A stretch of DNA of 5,282 nucleotides from a virus (Duplodnaviria > Heunggongvirae > Uroviricota > Caudoviricetes), in IMG/VR virus record IMGVR_UViG_2740892019_000008. One strand, written 5' to 3'. The position numbers and the translations under genes were made by a program. Under the pieces are notes generated by a model that was not told the DNA's origin, did not search any database, and saw only the letters and a program-made list of their open reading frames with translations. How positions within the stretch are numbered: the first letter of the stretch is position 1; the number at the start of each line of letters is the position of its first letter. Of this stretch, positions 1 through 5,282 are shown piece after piece.

Positions 1-1383
1 GCAGACCGCGCAGAAGCCGCAGCGGAAGTGACTGCAGAGCCCTGTGCGAATATAGTGCCGCCGCTGCCCGATGTGTGGATACCGTTTAATGATTCACTGG
101 ATATGATTACGGGCTTTTCGCCATCATATAAAAAAATTGTTATTGGCGACGATGAAATAACAATGCCTGGCGACAAGATTGTAAAGTTTAAACGCGCATC
201 GAAAGCAACTTACATTAATAAATCTGGTGTGCTGACAGAGGCTGCCATTGACGAGCCACGATTTGAACGTGATGGCCTGCTTATTGAGGGGCAAAGAACT
301 AACCTGCTAATCAATTCAACAAATCCGACTAAATGGAACAAGTCGTCAAATATGATCTTAAGTGCATCAGGTGTAGATGATTTCGGATTCCAGTACGCAA
401 AATTTACATTAAAACCAGAAATGGTAGGGCAAATTTCAGCGATTAACATAGTAACCGTTTCCGGCAGTAAAGGTTTTGATGTAACAGGCGGAGAAAAGTA
501 TGTAACCATATCATGCAGGGTGCAAAGTGGCACTCCAAATTTAAGATGCCGATTACGATTTGAAAACTATGATGGTTCTACCTACACATTCTTAGGTGAC
601 GCTTACTTAAATACGACAGATTTATCTATTGATAAGACGGGTGGTGCCGCTAATCGCATTACTGCAAGGGCTGTTAAAGATGAAGCAAGCAAATGGATCT
701 TTTTTGAGGCGACAATTAAGGCACTTGATACAGAAAATATGATAGGTGGAATGGTTCAGTATGCCCCGGCAAAAGGAGTGGGCACTGGCGCGGATGATTA
801 TATTTATATTGCGACCCCTCAAGTTGAAGGTGGGGCGTGCGCTTCATCGTTTATTATAACAGGCGCATCCCCTGTAACACGCGCCAGCGATATTGTAACG
901 GTCCCCATTTCTCTAAATTGGTGCAATCCCGCTATTAGTTCATTAGCAGAAGTTAATACCAATTGGGATGAATCGCCAAACAAAGAAGGTAGCGCACGTA
1001 TTCTTAATATTTCCACTACGGGAGATACAACTGAAATTGCAGATGAAAGTTATATGTATTTGGGGTATACATCTTTGGGAGCACGCGCAATCATTACAAA
1101 TGGTAAAGGCACTAAAATAGAATATAAAAGCGTTATAGAACGACCAGAGAGAAAAAGCATTATCGGCTTTAGATTCACAGAAAGTCGAGAATTGTGTGTT
1201 GTGGTTAACGGTAATATTGGTGCTAAGGTAGTTTCTCCTTATAAAAAACACAAATATACAGGAGGCTTCATTAATATTGGTGGTCAATCATCATCCGGCA
1301 ACCGTCACCTATTTGGACACGTTCGAAATCTGCGTATTTGGCACAAGGCATTGACTGATGCTCAGATGGGGGAGTCAATCTAA
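1..1383 (+). CDS. Phage tail fibre / receptor-binding protein, C-terminal part (5'-truncated at window edge), ending in a LamG/concanavalin-A-like domain
   Basis: The frame of the 28..1383 ORF is open back to position 1 with no stop. The GTG at 28 has no usable spacing to a Shine-Dalgarno and the first in-frame ATG (103) has none, so the gene most likely starts upstream of the window. The C-terminus (...GNRHLFGHVRNLRIWHKALTDAQM) resembles the conserved end of LamG-type lectin-like domains common in phage receptor-binding proteins. The stop TAA overlaps the next gene's ATG (TAATG at 1381..1385). Product call is by motif recognition and context only. Confidence 0.6.
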   Translation, partial: ADRAEAAAEVTAEPCANIVPPLPDVWIPFNDSLDMITGFSPSYKKIVIGDDEITMPGDKIVKFKRASKATYINKSGVLTEAAIDEPRFERDGLLIEGQRTNLLINSTNPTKWNKSSNMILSASGVDDFGFQYAKFTLKPEMVGQISAINIVTVSGSKGFDVTGGEKYVTISCRVQSGTPNLRCRLRFENYDGSTYTFLGDAYLNTTDLSIDKTGGAANRITARAVKDEASKWIFFEATIKALDTENMIGGMVQYAPAKGVGTGADDYIYIATPQVEGGACASSFIITGASPVTRASDIVTVPISLNWCNPAISSLAEVNTNWDESPNKEGSARILNISTTGDTTEIADESYMYLGYTSLGARAIITNGKGTKIEYKSVIERPERKSIIGFRFTESRELCVVVNGNIGAKVVSPYKKHKYTGGFINIGGQSSSGNRHLFGHVRNLRIWHKALTDAQMGESI

Positions 1384-1664
1384 TGAAAGATTTAACACTC
1401 AAATTTGCCGACAGGGCCGACTTTTCGGCCTTTATGGGAAGTATTGGCTATTATAATGACGAGTCGATGCAGGATGATATTCTGATTGATGTGATAGGTA
1501 ACGTGTACAAAGAAACCGGAGAGCTGACTGAAGATGGCGAACCGGTATGTGTTAAGGAAGATGGATATTTTGTAAACGTGCGCATCATTAAGGATACGCA
1601 AATATCGTCATTATTCGATGAATACGCGGTTGCTGTTGAGCATAAACTTCGTGGCTGGATGTGA
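1383..1664 (+). CDS. Hypothetical small acidic protein (93 aa), translationally coupled to the tail-fibre gene
   Basis: ATG at 1383 overlaps the upstream stop, with GGAG at 1371..1374 as Shine-Dalgarno. The protein is rich in D/E and has no transmembrane segment. Its position between a fibre gene and an S74-domain gene suggests a fibre assembly or adaptor role, but no recognisable motif supports that. Confidence 0.55.
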   Translation: MKDLTLKFADRADFSAFMGSIGYYNDESMQDDILIDVIGNVYKETGELTEDGEPVCVKEDGYFVNVRIIKDTQISSLFDEYAVAVEHKLRGWM

Positions 1665-1673
1665 GGTAGAGAA

Positions 1674-2378
1674 ATGGCTACATCAACAGTAATTCCGGGA
1701 GACATCACCACGCTGAAGGGAGATGTTAGTAAAGCAAAGGAAGATATTTCCTCTATTAACGGAAAAGTATCAACGCTTCAGACTGATATGGCCAGTGCAA
1801 AGCAGGATATCAGCACCAGATACACAAAAACTGAAGTTGATAATAAGCTGAAAAACAAAGTGGAAGTGAACGATCTGGAAAGTGGTCGTTATGGCGGAGA
1901 TTTTTACCCGCTGACTGGCCGTGAAGCGTTTTATTTATGGGGATTGGGCACAACTACAGCGGCGGCAAATCTTTATCTTAATCCTGACCCTGCAATTTCG
2001 TCTGTGCTGCGGTCAACATCGTCTATCCGCTATAAACATTCAGTAGAGACGATAGATTCAGAGCACGCCGATCTCATTTTCAGGATGCGCCCTGTGTGGT
2101 ACAGGTCGCAATGCGAAAATGACAGGCGTGACTGGGGATTCTATGGATTGATTGCCGAGGAAGTTGGAGAAATTGCCCCTCAGTTTGTTCACTGGCGACC
2201 AGCCAACGAAGATGATGCACCGGAAACCATTTCCAGCAATGGCCTTGTTGCCGAAGGTGTAATGTACGAACGTCTGGTTGTTCCACTGATTCACCATATC
2301 CAGAAGCTGACTGAAAGAGTTGATGAACTTGAGTCAGAATTAAAGTTGTTATCCGTTTCCCGAAGCGATATCGGATAA
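1674..2378 (+). CDS. Short tail-fibre-like protein with C-terminal peptidase S74 intramolecular-chaperone (auto-cleaving) domain
   Basis: GAGG at 1663..1666 lies 7 nt before the ATG at 1674. The N-terminal ~60 aa carry two copies of a K-x-D-[VI]-S-x-AK-x-DIS motif typical of fibre repeats. From about residue 116 the sequence fits the S74 chaperone domain (PF13884-like): S116-S-I-R-Y-K121 matches the S-[DS]-x-R-x-K Ser/Lys dyad motif (codons at 2019..2036), followed by WGFYGLIAEEVGEIAPQFV and a C-terminal coiled coil (ERVDELESELKLL). Confidence 0.75.
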   Translation: MATSTVIPGDITTLKGDVSKAKEDISSINGKVSTLQTDMASAKQDISTRYTKTEVDNKLKNKVEVNDLESGRYGGDFYPLTGREAFYLWGLGTTTAAANLYLNPDPAISSVLRSTSSIRYKHSVETIDSEHADLIFRMRPVWYRSQCENDRRDWGFYGLIAEEVGEIAPQFVHWRPANEDDAPETISSNGLVAEGVMYERLVVPLIHHIQKLTERVDELESELKLLSVSRSDIG

Positions 2379-2388
2379 AGGAGGAGTA

Positions 2389-2676
2389 ATGGATATAACA
2401 CCTTTTCTTCATGCGCTTTGTGCTGTGGCGGCGCAGGTACTGATTGGCCTTTTTACCGGAAACTGGATTTACGGGGCGATAGCCGGTTGTACGTTCTTCA
2501 TTGCGCGGGAACACACCCAAGCAGAATATCGCTGGATTGAAATGTTCGGGCATGGCAAGCGGATTAACATGCCGTGGTGGGGCGGTTTTGATACGCGCGT
2601 GTGGGATATGGCAAGTCTGATGGATTTTGCTGTGCCGGTGGTGGCGTGTTTACTTGTATTTATATTTTTTGAATAA
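2389..2676 (+). CDS. Hypothetical small membrane protein (95 aa, about three predicted transmembrane segments)
   Basis: Strong Shine-Dalgarno AAGGAGGA at 2379..2386, then ATG at 2389. Three hydrophobic stretches (FLHALCAVAAQVLIGLF, WIYGAIAGCTFFIA, FAVPVVACLLVFIFF). It is the last gene of the + strand operon and is followed immediately by a hairpin terminator. No lipobox or signal peptide is evident. Confidence 0.6.
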   Translation: MDITPFLHALCAVAAQVLIGLFTGNWIYGAIAGCTFFIAREHTQAEYRWIEMFGHGKRINMPWWGGFDTRVWDMASLMDFAVPVVACLLVFIFFE

Positions 2677-2681
2677 AATTA

Positions 2682-2708
2682 AGACCCCATCTATAACTGA
2701 TGGGGTCT
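2682..2708. terminator. Bidirectional rho-independent terminator between convergent operons
   Basis: Perfect 10-bp inverted repeat AGACCCCATC (2682..2691) and GATGGGGTCT (2699..2708) with a 7-nt loop. A T-rich tract follows on the + strand (2709..2720), and on the - strand the hairpin is followed by TTAATTTTATTC. It sits 6 nt after the 95-aa gene's stop and 17 nt after the sopB stop. Confidence 0.65.
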
Positions 2709-2724
2709 ATTCTATTTTCTGCTA

Positions 2725-3714
2725 TTAGTTATTTTTTACATCGGAAGAATTTCCAAACGCCTCCTCAAGAATAGATTCAATTTTACTCATTAGGTGCGAT
2801 GGTATTTTTCTGTTATCTAATTTTAATGTTGTGAAATTTTTCCCATATTTCGCCACAACACCGTCTCCATATTTCTTTTCCCTTTTCTCTCCATGTGAAT
2901 TGTTTTTCTCAACAATAATGAAATCATGAAGAGCCTGTATTATTCTTTGCGCATCTAAACTTTCACCTGATTTTTTCATCCTCAGCAACTGAGATGCAGC
3001 ATTTTTCATGGCTGCTTCCTGTCCCTGATATGCTTTAAAAAGAGCGTCTCCTGCTCTGGCTGATAACTCACCAGGATGGTTAAATATTGCCAATATATCT
3101 TTAGGTAAACCGGCTGTATTAATACATCGACTGATAATATTTCTATCCACGCCTTCGGCTTCAGCTAAAGATTTTACGTTACCGTCAAATTCATGGAGCC
3201 TTCGCAGGTATCTTTTCCCCCTTTCATAGGCGCTGATAGGTCTATAGTCGTTGCCTATCTGCGATAACCATTGCATTTGTTCATCATCTAAATCGCCAAT
3301 AAGAACACGATAATCGCATCCAGTTATAATGGCTGCTTTACGTCTTCGAGAACCATCAGCTACTTCAACAATACCTGACACTTTTCTTGCGAAAGCCGGA
3401 TTTTGTTGCCCAGAAGTTAGAAAAGATGGAATTAAATCAGCTAGAGAAGATTCATTTAATAAATCTTGATCGCGCTCATTACCTAGCCATACCATTGTTG
3501 CCATTTCTACTTTATCTGCGGGGATCGTCTCTAACTTAAAGTTAACATTACGTCCGCATACTGGCAAAGTTATGCTATTACCGGTTAATGAACTCAGTTG
3601 ACGTTTTAAATCACCAACCATAGGTGATACCGGCTGATGTTCAGGTGCATGATGATTATTACTCATAATGCGATTAATATCCGGAGCATTTTTTAGAAGA
3701 GAGCGTTGTTTCAT
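2725..3714 (-). CDS. sopB: Partition protein SopB (ParB-family centromere-binding protein)
   Basis: The translation closely resembles F-plasmid SopB as recalled from memory (e.g. ...GNSITLPVCGRNVNF..., WLGNERDQDLL, LIPSFLTSGQQNPAFARKVSGIVEVADGSRRRKAAI). The ParB GSRRRKAA arginine-rich box is encoded at 3331..3354. The start ATG overlaps the sopA stop (ATGA at 3711..3714), indicating translational coupling. Confidence 0.9.
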   Translation of the reverse strand: MKQRSLLKNAPDINRIMSNNHHAPEHQPVSPMVGDLKRQLSSLTGNSITLPVCGRNVNFKLETIPADKVEMATMVWLGNERDQDLLNESSLADLIPSFLTSGQQNPAFARKVSGIVEVADGSRRRKAAIITGCDYRVLIGDLDDEQMQWLSQIGNDYRPISAYERGKRYLRRLHEFDGNVKSLAEAEGVDRNIISRCINTAGLPKDILAIFNHPGELSARAGDALFKAYQGQEAAMKNAASQLLRMKKSGESLDAQRIIQALHDFIIVEKNNSHGEKREKKYGDGVVAKYGKNFTTLKLDNRKIPSHLMSKIESILEEAFGNSSDVKNN

Positions 3715-4880
3715 TCTTCGTTCTCCCAGCGAGGTTTTATTAGATCATCAAAAATTTCTCGACAAACAGGATCCCATATAGAGACGGCATTTCTCCATGC
3801 ATTAAGTGTTGAACGCTGGTTTGCCGCTTGTTCAAATACTGTTCGCATTTTTATCTGACCTTTACCTACTTCATCGGTAACGCGTACAACCTGACGTAAT
3901 ACCATTGATCCCCATGTATTTCTTATTTGCTCTTCCATCCATCGTGATTGATTTCCTGTAGTGAGACTATATTTAGTCAGAAGCAAGCGAACGGTCGGCT
4001 CAAATCCGCCTAGGTCAACGCTTTCTAGGAGATCGAGAAGCATTGTGAAAAACTGTAGAACAGAGGCGTAATCAAATAATTCTGCAGGGGTAGCAACAAC
4101 GATAACGTCAGCTGCGCAAACAACGTTAATGGTTCCTGTACCGAGGTTTGGAGCACTATCTATAACGATAACATCGTAGTTATCCCAAACTGATTCTATA
4201 GCTGCGCGTAGCATCAGGTGAGGAGGGTGAGGCAATTTACCCTGAGCATGATATTGCATGAGATCTGTTTCTATACGGTGTAAAGCTAGGCAGCTAGGAA
4301 TAATGTCCAGTCCAGGCCAGCATGTTGGTTTTATAGCATATTCAGCGTTATCGCGTTCGCCTAAGTAAAATGGCAGTAAAGTATCCTCGGCATGGATATG
4401 TAAATCAGGTACATAACCGTGATACATGGAGGCTGTTCCCTGAGGATCGTTACCTTCAACTAAAAGAACACGATGGCCTTGTAATGCTAGCCATTGTGCC
4501 TGATGTACTGCAGACGATGTTTTATAAACGCCGCCTTTGTGTGACATAACAGCAAGCACAACTGGGTTTTTATCTTGTGGCCGTTGGTTTGGGTTGCCAA
4601 AAACAGCTCGCATACTATTGATTTGATCTATGGTATAACCGGCACGACGTTCAACTCTTCCTCTCATTTCAAAGTCAGGTGCAGGTAAACGCCCGTTCTT
4701 CTCAGCATCTCTTATTGCTTGAGGAGTTACACCAATTAAATCTGCTACTTCAGTTATCCCCCATCTACGCGTGATACGCCGAGCTTCAGGACTATCATCA
4801 CCGAATTGAGCGATAGCAATTGCTTTGGTCATTTCTTGACCACGCGTAACACAATCTTGTAATAACTTTTTCAAAGACAT
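3711..4880 (-). CDS. sopA: Partition ATPase SopA (type Ia ParA with N-terminal HTH extension)
   Basis: The translation closely resembles F-plasmid SopA as recalled from memory (EMTKAIAIAQF.DDSPEAR.ITRRW, VLLVEGNDPQGTASMYHG, DLHIHAEDTLLPFYLGE, IKPTCWPGLDIIPSCLALHRIE). A deviant Walker A KGGVYKT is encoded at 4518..4538. The N-terminal ~100 aa before Walker A are typical of autoregulating type Ia ParA proteins. GGAG Shine-Dalgarno (complement of 4889..4892) lies 8 nt before the ATG at 4880. Confidence 0.92.
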   Translation of the reverse strand: MSLKKLLQDCVTRGQEMTKAIAIAQFGDDSPEARRITRRWGITEVADLIGVTPQAIRDAEKNGRLPAPDFEMRGRVERRAGYTIDQINSMRAVFGNPNQRPQDKNPVVLAVMSHKGGVYKTSSAVHQAQWLALQGHRVLLVEGNDPQGTASMYHGYVPDLHIHAEDTLLPFYLGERDNAEYAIKPTCWPGLDIIPSCLALHRIETDLMQYHAQGKLPHPPHLMLRAAIESVWDNYDVIVIDSAPNLGTGTINVVCAADVIVVATPAELFDYASVLQFFTMLLDLLESVDLGGFEPTVRLLLTKYSLTTGNQSRWMEEQIRNTWGSMVLRQVVRVTDEVGKGQIKMRTVFEQAANQRSTLNAWRNAVSIWDPVCREIFDDLIKPRWENEE

Positions 4881-4901
4881 ACTGTCATCTCCAGCTTATA
4901 A

Positions 4902-4979
4902 CTTTGCTTAATAATTATTTCTTTGCATATTTCTAGCAAATTGACATAGAAAAAGCAAAGTAAAACAAAAAACGCAAAG
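4902..4979 (-). promoter_or_regulatory. Putative sopAB promoter/operator with four SopA-type CTTTGC hexamers in dyad-symmetric arrangement
   Basis: On the + strand CTTTGC occurs at 4902..4907 and 4921..4926, and GCAAAG at 4955..4960 and 4974..4979. Each pair is spaced 19 bp, and inner and outer pairs share the same centre (about 4940.5). F SopA is known to autoregulate by binding four CTTTGC motifs in its promoter. Exact -35/-10 elements were not pinned down. Confidence 0.55.
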
Positions 4980-5167
4980 ACGAAGATTTGAGCAAAATCA
5001 TCTTTTGTTTTATCCCTTAAATGCAAAAACAAACAACGACAAGCACATAACAAATTGATAATAAATGCTTTTTTAAAAGAAAGGAAATCGTATAAAACTA
5101 GGGAAACATGATGAAAATCATCAATGAGATACGTTTCCTCTATTTATTCTCCTAATCCTCACCAACA

Positions 5168-5268
5168 AAAGAACACAATCAAAGATTGTAAAACAACAAT
5201 AATAATGCACACAAAATAAAGAACACAAATACAGAAAGCAACAACACAATAAAAACAAGATAACACAA
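5168..5268 (+). repeat. A/C-rich, strand-asymmetric tract with direct repeats (AAAGAACACAA twice, AACACAA four times)
   Basis: AAAGAACACAA at 5168..5178 and 5218..5228. The core AACACAA starts at 5172, 5222, 5243 and 5262 (spacings 50, 21, 19 bp). The + strand here has almost no G or T. No ORF is listed in any frame. The tract runs to the window edge and may continue beyond it. Confidence 0.4.
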
Positions 5269-5282
5269 GCTATAAATATTAC

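Follow-up and report, generated by a model that had tools for sequence, protein, structure and literature searches.

A short S74-chaperone protein at the end of a phage late operon: a probable minimal distal subunit of a multi-gene side tail fibre

The S74 gene and its protein

We analysed a stretch of 5,282 nucleotides (nt), referred to here as the window, from a tailed virus of the Caudoviricetes (IMG/VR virus record IMGVR_UViG_2740892019_000008), with a focus on an open reading frame (ORF) which runs from an ATG at position 1674 to a TAA stop codon at 2376-2378, and which encodes a protein of 234 amino acids (aa) ending in a peptidase S74 domain. The window contains the right end of a late operon, belonging to a lambdoid or N15-like temperate phage of Escherichia coli, with sopB and sopA following on the other strand; the S74 gene lies in this operon behind the gene of a proximal tail fibre and a small gene for a 93-aa protein. 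All features of the window are collected in Table 1.

Table 1. Genes, domains and signals in the 5,282-nt window
Feature	Positions	Strand	Basis and remarks
Proximal side/lateral tail fibre (Stf-like), 3' part	28-1383	+	phrog_1419 'tail protein', 1.8e-195, profile positions 351-793 of 793
93-aa cassette protein	1383-1664	+	phrog_1361, 5.5e-44; start overlaps the fibre-gene stop (TAATG)
Shine-Dalgarno-like GAGG	1663-1666	+	7 nt 5' of the S74-gene ATG; read from the sequence
Probable distal fibre subunit gene, complete, 234 aa, S74 domain	1674-2378	+	ORF, profiles, homologues, selection
N-terminal anchor MATSTVIPGDITTLK, aa 1-15	1674-1718	+	Common to distal subunits at this locus; conservation reaches about aa 27
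Heptad-repeat alpha-helical shaft, aa 9-60, xD[IV][ST]x[LIA][KQN]	1698-1853	+	AlphaFold2 helices 9-49 and 52-60
Linker and small tip, aa 61-115	1854-2018	+	Ends in a generic pre-cleavage element (about aa 85-115)
Peptidase_S74 intramolecular chaperone domain, aa 116-234, including C-terminal helix 198-232	2019-2375	+	Pfam, AlphaFold2, Foldseek
SSIRYK, predicted Ser116 nucleophile and Lys121 base, scissile bond before Ser116	2019-2036	+	Invariance, start of the Pfam profile
95-aa hydrophobic protein, last operon gene	2389-2676	+	phrog_1443, 7.7e-56; strong AGGAGG Shine-Dalgarno
Perfect 10-bp GC-rich hairpin, AGACCCCATC...GATGGGGTCT	2682-2708	both	T-rich stretches on either strand
SopB	2725-3714	opposite, convergent with the fibre operon	SoPB_HTH, 1.5e-23
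ParA/SopA ATPase	3711-4880	opposite, convergent with the fibre operon	Profile matches

An earlier sequence-only reading of the window had proposed that an S74 domain makes up half of this protein, had placed its Ser116/Lys121 dyad in the motif SSIRYK, and had suggested a profile search as a check. Each of these points was borne out: the motif is encoded exactly where it had been placed, and the C-terminal half of the protein is an S74 intramolecular chaperone domain. The Pfam family PF13884 (Peptidase_S74, 'Chaperone of endosialidase') aligns with aa 116-172 over profile positions 1-57 of 58 (E 4.7e-06), with a score of 27.2 bits at a curated gathering cut-off of 22 bits. Ser116 and Lys121 are invariant in an alignment of 40 sequences that includes homologues down to 27% identity, as are P140, V141, Y143, R144, S145, G158, I160, A161 and E162, and in other alleles the profile position of SSIRYK is taken by SDRDLK, SDSRLK or SDSRVK. 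The AlphaFold2 model of the monomer has a block-mean predicted local distance difference test score (pLDDT) of 82-96 for aa 121-230 and ends in a long helix (aa 198-232). When this model was compared with the PDB using Foldseek, the hits with E up to 0.1 consisted of intramolecular-chaperone structures only, with the MyRF ICA structure 7dc3 at the top (E 4.6e-05, probability 1.0), followed by endosialidase (3gw6) and the GA-1 neck appendage (3gud), both of which are weak if taken alone (E 0.02-0.09).

At the sequence level, a search of the PDB retrieved only the chaperone region of DT57C LtfA (8hqz, E 1.2e-07, LtfA residues 952-1068) and MyRF; T5 pb1 was absent from this search up to E 1, and hence we claim no direct similarity to the T5 tip. 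The NCBIfam collection gave no match for the protein, and neither Pfam, PHROGs nor NCBIfam matched it to a tail-fibre-assembly family (lambda Tfa, Mu gpU or the T4 gp38/gp57 types). The predicted cut before Ser116 would divide the protein into parts of 115 aa and 119 aa with computed masses of 12.4 kDa and 13.8 kDa, respectively, in line with the mature product of about 115 aa that had been predicted earlier.

The N-terminal half begins with an anchor motif, M[AV]TxT[VN]IPxDITxLK, which opens distal subunits of 221-579 aa, being present in the 346-aa allele found at this locus in relatives, in IrisVonRoten Gp24, in the 579-aa fibre of BUCT632 and in KarlJaspers, with a looser form in VogelGryff. 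The profiles phrog_4563 and phrog_19752 match aa 1-32 only of the 234-aa protein. The anchor runs into the heptads of the shaft (GDITTLK GDVSKAK EDISSIN GKVSTLQ TDMASAK QDISTRY ...), presumed to form a trimeric coiled coil, which give a weak match to the coiled-coil repeats of the P22 tail needle gp26 (4lin). The number of heptads varies among homologues, placing the cleavage Ser anywhere from position 99 to 141, while the nucleophile Ser follows the FYPLT motif (aa 77-81) at an unchanging distance of 39 residues in each of 25 short homologues; because the number of heptads varies and the distance from tip to cleavage site is fixed, we consider the shaft to be structural.

With regard to the tip, 3,583 relatives were retrieved from 1.84 billion representative proteins, and for most of the best 150 of these the match starts around query aa 80-93 and falls at the C-terminus of a longer protein, which implies that the last 30 or so residues before the cleavage site are a generic chaperone-associated module. 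The newly retrieved best matches have a median length of 485 aa, and about 6% are at most 260 aa long and contain the dyad. The whole 234-aa protein also aligns with phrog_3299, at profile positions 1147-1384 of 1385. Judged from the sequence, the 234-aa allele appears to lack a dedicated receptor-binding domain, and to have in its place only the heptad coiled coil and the generic pre-cleavage element.

The sequence-only reading had itself raised the possibility that the ORF is the 3' part of a longer gene disrupted by a frameshift. This was checked and rejected, as the gene has its own Shine-Dalgarno-like sequence and ATG, is set off from the preceding gene by a conserved stop and 9-nt spacer, and in KarlJaspers lies in another frame than that gene. 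It is also not a frameshift remnant because complete fibre proteins of 346-579 aa begin with a stretch homologous to its first 28 or so residues, and not a fragment because the ratio of non-synonymous to synonymous substitution rates (dN/dS) is low and similar in both halves: pairwise values against five close relatives are 0.12-0.17, and are about equal for aa 1-115 and aa 116-234.

The ORFs of the 93-aa protein and the S74 protein share a reading frame and are separated by a TGA stop codon and the 9 nt GGT AGA GAA, so that read-through of the TGA would yield a fusion of 330 aa. The same in-frame 9-nt spacing is found in PhiR46_1, 2G7b, BUCT632 and IrisVonRoten. We also fetched 80 related viral loci through the 93-aa protein and judged spacer and start wherever the downstream gene was readable; in these the stop and the 9-nt spacer are always kept, the S74 gene has its own ATG, and there is no fusion to the 93-aa ORF. 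In the T1-like phage KarlJaspers the two genes sit in different frames, and since the arrangement is absent there, the shared frame and spacing are probably incidental.

Neither the arrangement nor the protein is rare. The S74 gene is found with at least 80% coverage in 740 of 5,426 complete E. coli genomes (about 14%), in 927 chromosomal and 8 plasmid copies, and homologues are present in about 45 records of T1-like phages. Each of the 12 E. coli copies listed (12/12) is labelled 'tail fiber domain-containing protein', and the closest homologue belongs to a 90%-identity cluster of 2,928 members. The 234-aa family is widespread, common in E. coli prophages and T1-like phages, and ordinary rather than exceptional. 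The laboratory E. coli B strain BLR(DE3) has a prophage in which the 234-aa gene is present at full length and with 94% identity (NZ_CP020368.1, 1566222-1566926), and this common expression host may thus encode the protein.

The fibre cassette and its surroundings

The fibre gene expected two genes upstream of the S74 gene is present as ORF 28-1383, and it starts upstream of the window, the GTG at position 28 being merely the first start codon visible to the ORF finder. The encoded fragment is 50% identical, end to end, to residues 353-796 of IrisVonRoten Gp22. Its aa 85-286 match the NCBIfam family GTA_spike_fiber ('phage head spike fiber domain') with 63.6 bits (cut-off 36), and there is a weak match to Laminin_G_3 at the C-terminus; the GTA_spike_fiber and LamG-like domains are candidate carbohydrate-binding modules. 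A Pfam scan found no S74 domain in the proximal fibre. The C-terminal motif IGGQ..G.RHLFGH.RN.RIWHK.LT is kept in T1-like, T5-like, Seuratvirus and lambdoid versions, and the last 35 or so residues are nearly invariant across the groups of phages that have these genes. The middle of the gene (window positions 56-905) has 85-88% nt identity to lateral fibre genes of virulent T1- and T5-like phages such as EC195, tuinn, BUCT632 and VSe12, against only 68-74% nt identity to some otherwise closer temperate relatives, a pattern which suggests that fibre segments have recently passed between virulent phages and temperate phage-plasmids.

Homologues of the 93-aa protein were identified by tblastn in 181 phage records, which include lambdoid, T1-like, T5-like, Seuratvirus and Dhillonvirus phages as well as rV5-like myoviruses, and in every inspected cassette the gene lies between the proximal and distal fibre genes. 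The protein is without match in Pfam and NCBIfam, and its AlphaFold2 model, for which the 18 homologues available were all at least 81% identical, reached a pLDDT of only 45 and was set aside. The protein may act as a joint, or else as an assembly factor.

The order of proximal fibre (650-810 aa), protein of about 93 aa and distal protein ending in an S74 domain was found in eight annotated phages from five groups (Table 2), and PF13884 scored above its cut-off in all distal subunits scanned (221, 234, 346, 384 and 574 aa). Among the 80 related viral loci, the 346-aa allele occurs in about 40 and a 234-aa-type allele in about 31, and some prophages have broken versions of the distal gene (90, 189 and 323 aa). 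When the window is compared with relatives that have another allele, the shared block extends from about 1275 to 1733, and takes in the end of the proximal fibre gene, all of the 93-aa gene and some 20 codons at the start of the distal gene; nt similarity stops at 1733 and restarts at 2388. A conserved block followed by such a break is the pattern expected of a structural joint flanking an exchangeable module. In JakobBernoulli, from the same genus as KarlJaspers, the whole cassette is replaced by a single 741-aa fibre, which argues for one appendage being built by the three cassette genes together, and which fits with the description of lateral fibres made of one, two or more proteins in the BASEL collection. 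Lateral fibres composed of multiple proteins have been reported (PMC8594841, PMC4728585).

Table 2. The three-gene fibre cassette in annotated phages (protein lengths in aa)
Phage	Group	Proximal fibre	Middle protein	Distal protein
PhiR46_1	N15-like (telR site)	799	93	346
PhiR49_1	lambdoid	812	93	234
2G7b	lambdoid (Nesevirus)	791	93	345
IdasGreatGrand	lambdoid	731	93	234
KarlJaspers	T1-like	651	92	221
BUCT632	T5-like	797	92	579
IrisVonRoten (Gp22/Gp23/Gp24)	T5-like	796	92	574
VogelGryff	Seuratvirus	708	91	384

The SopB/SopA partition operon directly adjoins the fibre genes, as it does in N15-type linear plasmid prophages, and the closest phage record, PhiR46_1, has a linear genome of 46 kb with a telR site just past the partition genes, and is 98.5% identical to the window across positions 2388-5282. 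Relatives of the window sequence are found on non-mobilizable E. coli plasmids of about 45 kb, and far more often as chromosomal prophages; the 927 chromosomal versus 8 plasmid copies of the S74 gene imply that the fibre cassette moves between integrated lambdoid prophages and phage-plasmids. A literature search on ECOR13 and N15 prophages yielded nothing of use.

Directly 3' of the cassette, the gene for the 95-aa protein is kept in lambdoid and N15-like relatives regardless of the distal allele, and holds the equivalent position in PhiR46_1, PhiR49_1, 2G7b and IdasGreatGrand. Two or three membrane-spanning stretches can be made out by eye in its product, phrog_1443 is a family of unknown function, and the protein might be a lysogenic-conversion or superinfection-exclusion factor. 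The hairpin that follows it is, on the basis of its sequence, likely to be a bidirectional terminator separating the fibre operon from the convergent sopB gene.

A proposed distal fibre subunit and the alternatives

The S74 domains of endosialidase, GA-1 and T5 fibres are known to trimerise the chain to which they belong and then to be cleaved off. Based on the cassette and on the layout of the protein, we consider it probable that the 234-aa protein is the minimal distal subunit of a multi-gene side (lateral) tail fibre, which is trimerised by its chaperone, cut at Ser116 and seated on the proximal fibre. Of the two options offered by the sequence-only reading, the fibre module expressed separately from the upstream fibre is favoured by the cassette order in T1-like, T5-like and Seuratvirus phages, and the minimal whisker-like fibre is the less favoured one.

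In the proposed sequence of events, translation of the last part of the late operon would yield the proximal fibre, the 93-aa protein, the distal subunit and the 95-aa membrane protein. The C-terminal S74 chaperone would bring three chains of the distal subunit into register, nucleate a short beta element just upstream of itself and zip up the N-terminal heptad coiled coil, after which cleavage by the Ser116/Lys121 dyad on the N-terminal side of Ser116 would free the 119-aa chaperone. The mature product is thus predicted to be a trimer of 115-residue chains, each with an N-terminal peptide of 8 residues, about 50 residues of coiled coil and a tip of about 50 residues, and its N-terminal anchor would dock this stub on the end of the proximal fibre, in a joint that may be shared by the 93-aa protein. 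Other alleles have 190-415 residues of probable receptor-binding domain between anchor and chaperone; the window allele appears to have none and would form a 'headless' cap, so that the receptor would be contacted by the proximal fibre through its lectin-like domains, by the small conserved tip, or by the two together. The identity of the domain, the conserved dyad, the gene order, the common anchor, the varying heptad number, the purifying selection and the prevalence of the gene are shown by the analysis, from which we infer that the protein trimerises, is cleaved, enters the virion, docks on the proposed partner and has a role in adsorption.

Docking on the proximal fibre is suggested by the strict co-occurrence of the three genes and the conserved joint block, and by a published AlphaFold-Multimer model in which IrisVonRoten Gp24 is attached to the proximal fibre Gp22 (10.1101/2024.09.12.612763). 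In the same study the C-terminal galectin-like domain of Gp22 was suggested to be an additional receptor-binding domain, and with such a receptor binder on the proximal fibre a headless distal subunit could be tolerated. The low dN/dS, the 57-62% identity to the versions in T1-like phages and the high prevalence together argue that function is maintained. Going one step further, the headless allele could be a functional cap, as opposed to a fibre with lost function, that does no more than finish and stabilise the end of the proximal fibre and present the small generic tip, with host recognition handed to the proximal GTA-spike-fibre and LamG/galectin-like domains, and the locus, with its anchor and chaperone, could serve as a plug-in socket for receptor-binding domains. 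We put this forward tentatively, as an extension that is possible and on balance doubtful. If it is true, the S74 domain would here fold little beyond a coiled-coil stopper, and receptor-binding domains would be gained and lost by recombination, allowing phages to switch between O-antigen-specific and receptor-agnostic side fibres.

Several points weigh against a minimal distal subunit of this kind. The S74 scores are modest, with 27.2 bits for the window protein and just 22.4 bits for the KarlJaspers protein. The AlphaFold2 monomer has a pLDDT below 50 for aa 59-103, so that the tip is modelled with low confidence, and as the roughly 50 residues of the tip are fairly well conserved, they might themselves bind a conserved receptor, which would make 'headless' an overstatement. 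The literature searched contains no direct characterisation of the short S74 allele, no experimentally characterised example was found among the T1-like homologues of 221-231 aa, and a literature search on virion proteomics of T1-like phages gave nothing specific. Finally, the homologues in KarlJaspers and PeterMerian are labelled 'putative lateral tail fiber chaperone' in BASEL.

This label points to a different role, in which the protein is a chaperone that helps in trans to assemble the fibre protein encoded upstream and does not become part of the virion. The lack of an obvious receptor-binding domain in the window allele and of an S74 domain in the proximal fibre would be in keeping with such a role, as would the observation that DT57C LtfA seemed unstable without LtfB (PMC4728585). 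However, the label is also found on the VogelGryff protein, annotated as 388 aa and containing a sizeable extra domain, and appears to follow the Pfam name, and the profile searches gave no match of the Tfa, gp38 or gp57 type. Moreover, the protein is laid out like a structural fibre, with an anchor, a variable coiled coil and an exchangeable middle, and its N-terminal half is under purifying selection equal to that of the chaperone half. S74 domains are intramolecular, in that they fold their own chain and are then cut off, and are reportedly described as such by Schulz et al. in 2010 and Schwarzer et al. in 2009. A literature search on chaperone action 'in trans' found no relevant passage. 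We regard this role as quite improbable.

An independent short whisker, with the mature trimer anchored directly to the tail tip or baseplate as a separate second appendage, is also unlikely: while coiled-coil stubs with small tips exist elsewhere, and the weak match to the P22 gp26 needle repeats could be taken in its favour, the S74 gene is always located directly 3' of the proximal fibre and 93-aa genes in five phage groups with unrelated tail tips, JakobBernoulli replaces the cassette by one fibre, and the published model joins the homologue Gp24 to Gp22.

The distal gene could alternatively be in decay, as an internal-deletion derivative of a longer distal fibre which has lost its receptor-binding domain and is tolerated because side fibres are dispensable. 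This would account for longer proteins (P0186-P0193, 539-1,243 aa) that share approximately aa 49-234 at 52-61% identity, for the alignment of the whole protein with the last 238 of the 1,385 positions of phrog_3299, and for the broken versions in some prophages. It is hard to reconcile with the low dN/dS across both halves, the reading frame that is intact in 740 E. coli genomes, the invariant catalytic dyad, and the conservation of the short layout at 57-62% identity in virulent T1-like phages, which soon shed dead genes, and we think it very unlikely.

The reading as a distal subunit of a side fibre does not reveal a new kind of system, as multi-gene fibres with an S74 distal subunit are already described and the gene is abundant and generically annotated. 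In the papers searched we found no mention of a missing receptor-binding domain in the short allele, nor of a single conserved joint made up of its anchor, the 93-aa protein and the LamG-like end of the proximal fibre. The range of O-antigen types open to a siphovirus is determined by its side or lateral tail fibres, and fibre loci are the main hot spot of host-range change. The analysis gives a clearer annotation for a gene that is now labelled 'chaperone of endosialidase', 'hypothetical protein', 'tail fiber domain-containing protein' or 'lateral tail fiber chaperone', and the fixed parts of the cassette (anchor, 93-aa protein, LamG-like proximal end and chaperone) may be useful for engineering swaps of receptor-binding domains. 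The minimal allele, a protein of 26 kDa with a predicted product of 12.4 kDa, would be a handy small model for trimerisation and cleavage driven by S74 domains.

Comparison with known systems

T1-like Drexlerviridae (KarlJaspers gp35, PeterMerian, Jahat_MG145, BEBK14, SECphi27 and others) have homologues of 221-231 aa, which are 57-62% identical over their full length and have the same layout and cassette. They differ in having fewer heptads, with the cleavage Ser at position 106 rather than 116, and in belonging to virulent phages, and their labels vary between 'chaperone of endosialidase', 'tail fiber protein' and 'putative lateral tail fiber chaperone'. At the same locus, the 346-aa allele of PhiR46_1, 2G7b and Tritos has the same flanking genes, 74% identity over the first 27 or so residues and an S74 end, but its chaperone domain is divergent (SDRDLK, 52 bits with PF13884), and it contains about 190 residues of unrelated middle sequence, probably a receptor-binding domain; the corresponding region of IrisVonRoten Gp24 is about 415 residues.

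The S74 half itself shares its profile match, Ser/Lys spacing and predicted fold with the chaperones of endosialidase K1F (3gw6), the GA-1 neck appendage (3gud), MyRF (7dc3) and DT57C LtfA (8hqz), which form the ends of large spikes, of large fibres or of a transcription factor, whereas the S74 domain in the window accounts for half of its protein. A tail-fibre atlas (10.1101/2024.10.28.620165) includes a class of fibres that combine a coiled coil at the N-terminus with an S74 domain at the C-terminus, and reports that cryo-EM density was absent for the S74 domain of one of them (RBP_11). The single L-shaped fibre of the T5 pb1 type is a poor description of the window protein, which has 234 aa and aligns with long fibres only through its C-terminal module. 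The branched fibres of DT57C, LtfA and LtfB, resemble the proposed system in that one fibre protein is borne by another and both have a conserved C-terminal domain, but the N-terminus of LtfB resembles phiEco32 gp15 rather than the window anchor, and no 93-aa gene is described there.

A close match to the proposed system is found in IrisVonRoten and, with the same arrangement, BUCT632. IrisVonRoten Gp24 shares the gene order, a homologous protein of about 93 aa (Gp23, 92 aa) and an anchor with 43% identity over aa 1-28, and it also ends in an S74 chaperone with a Ser/Lys dyad, in agreement with the description of distal subunits with a C-terminal intramolecular chaperone (10.1101/2024.09.12.612763). 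The two chaperone domains are just 27% identical, and Gp24 has 574 aa, with two predicted receptor-binding domains between anchor and chaperone, where the window protein has about 50 residues of coiled coil. The variable receptor-binding domain expected of an IrisVonRoten-type distal subunit is thus missing from the window allele, which makes this allele a minimal variant of that type.

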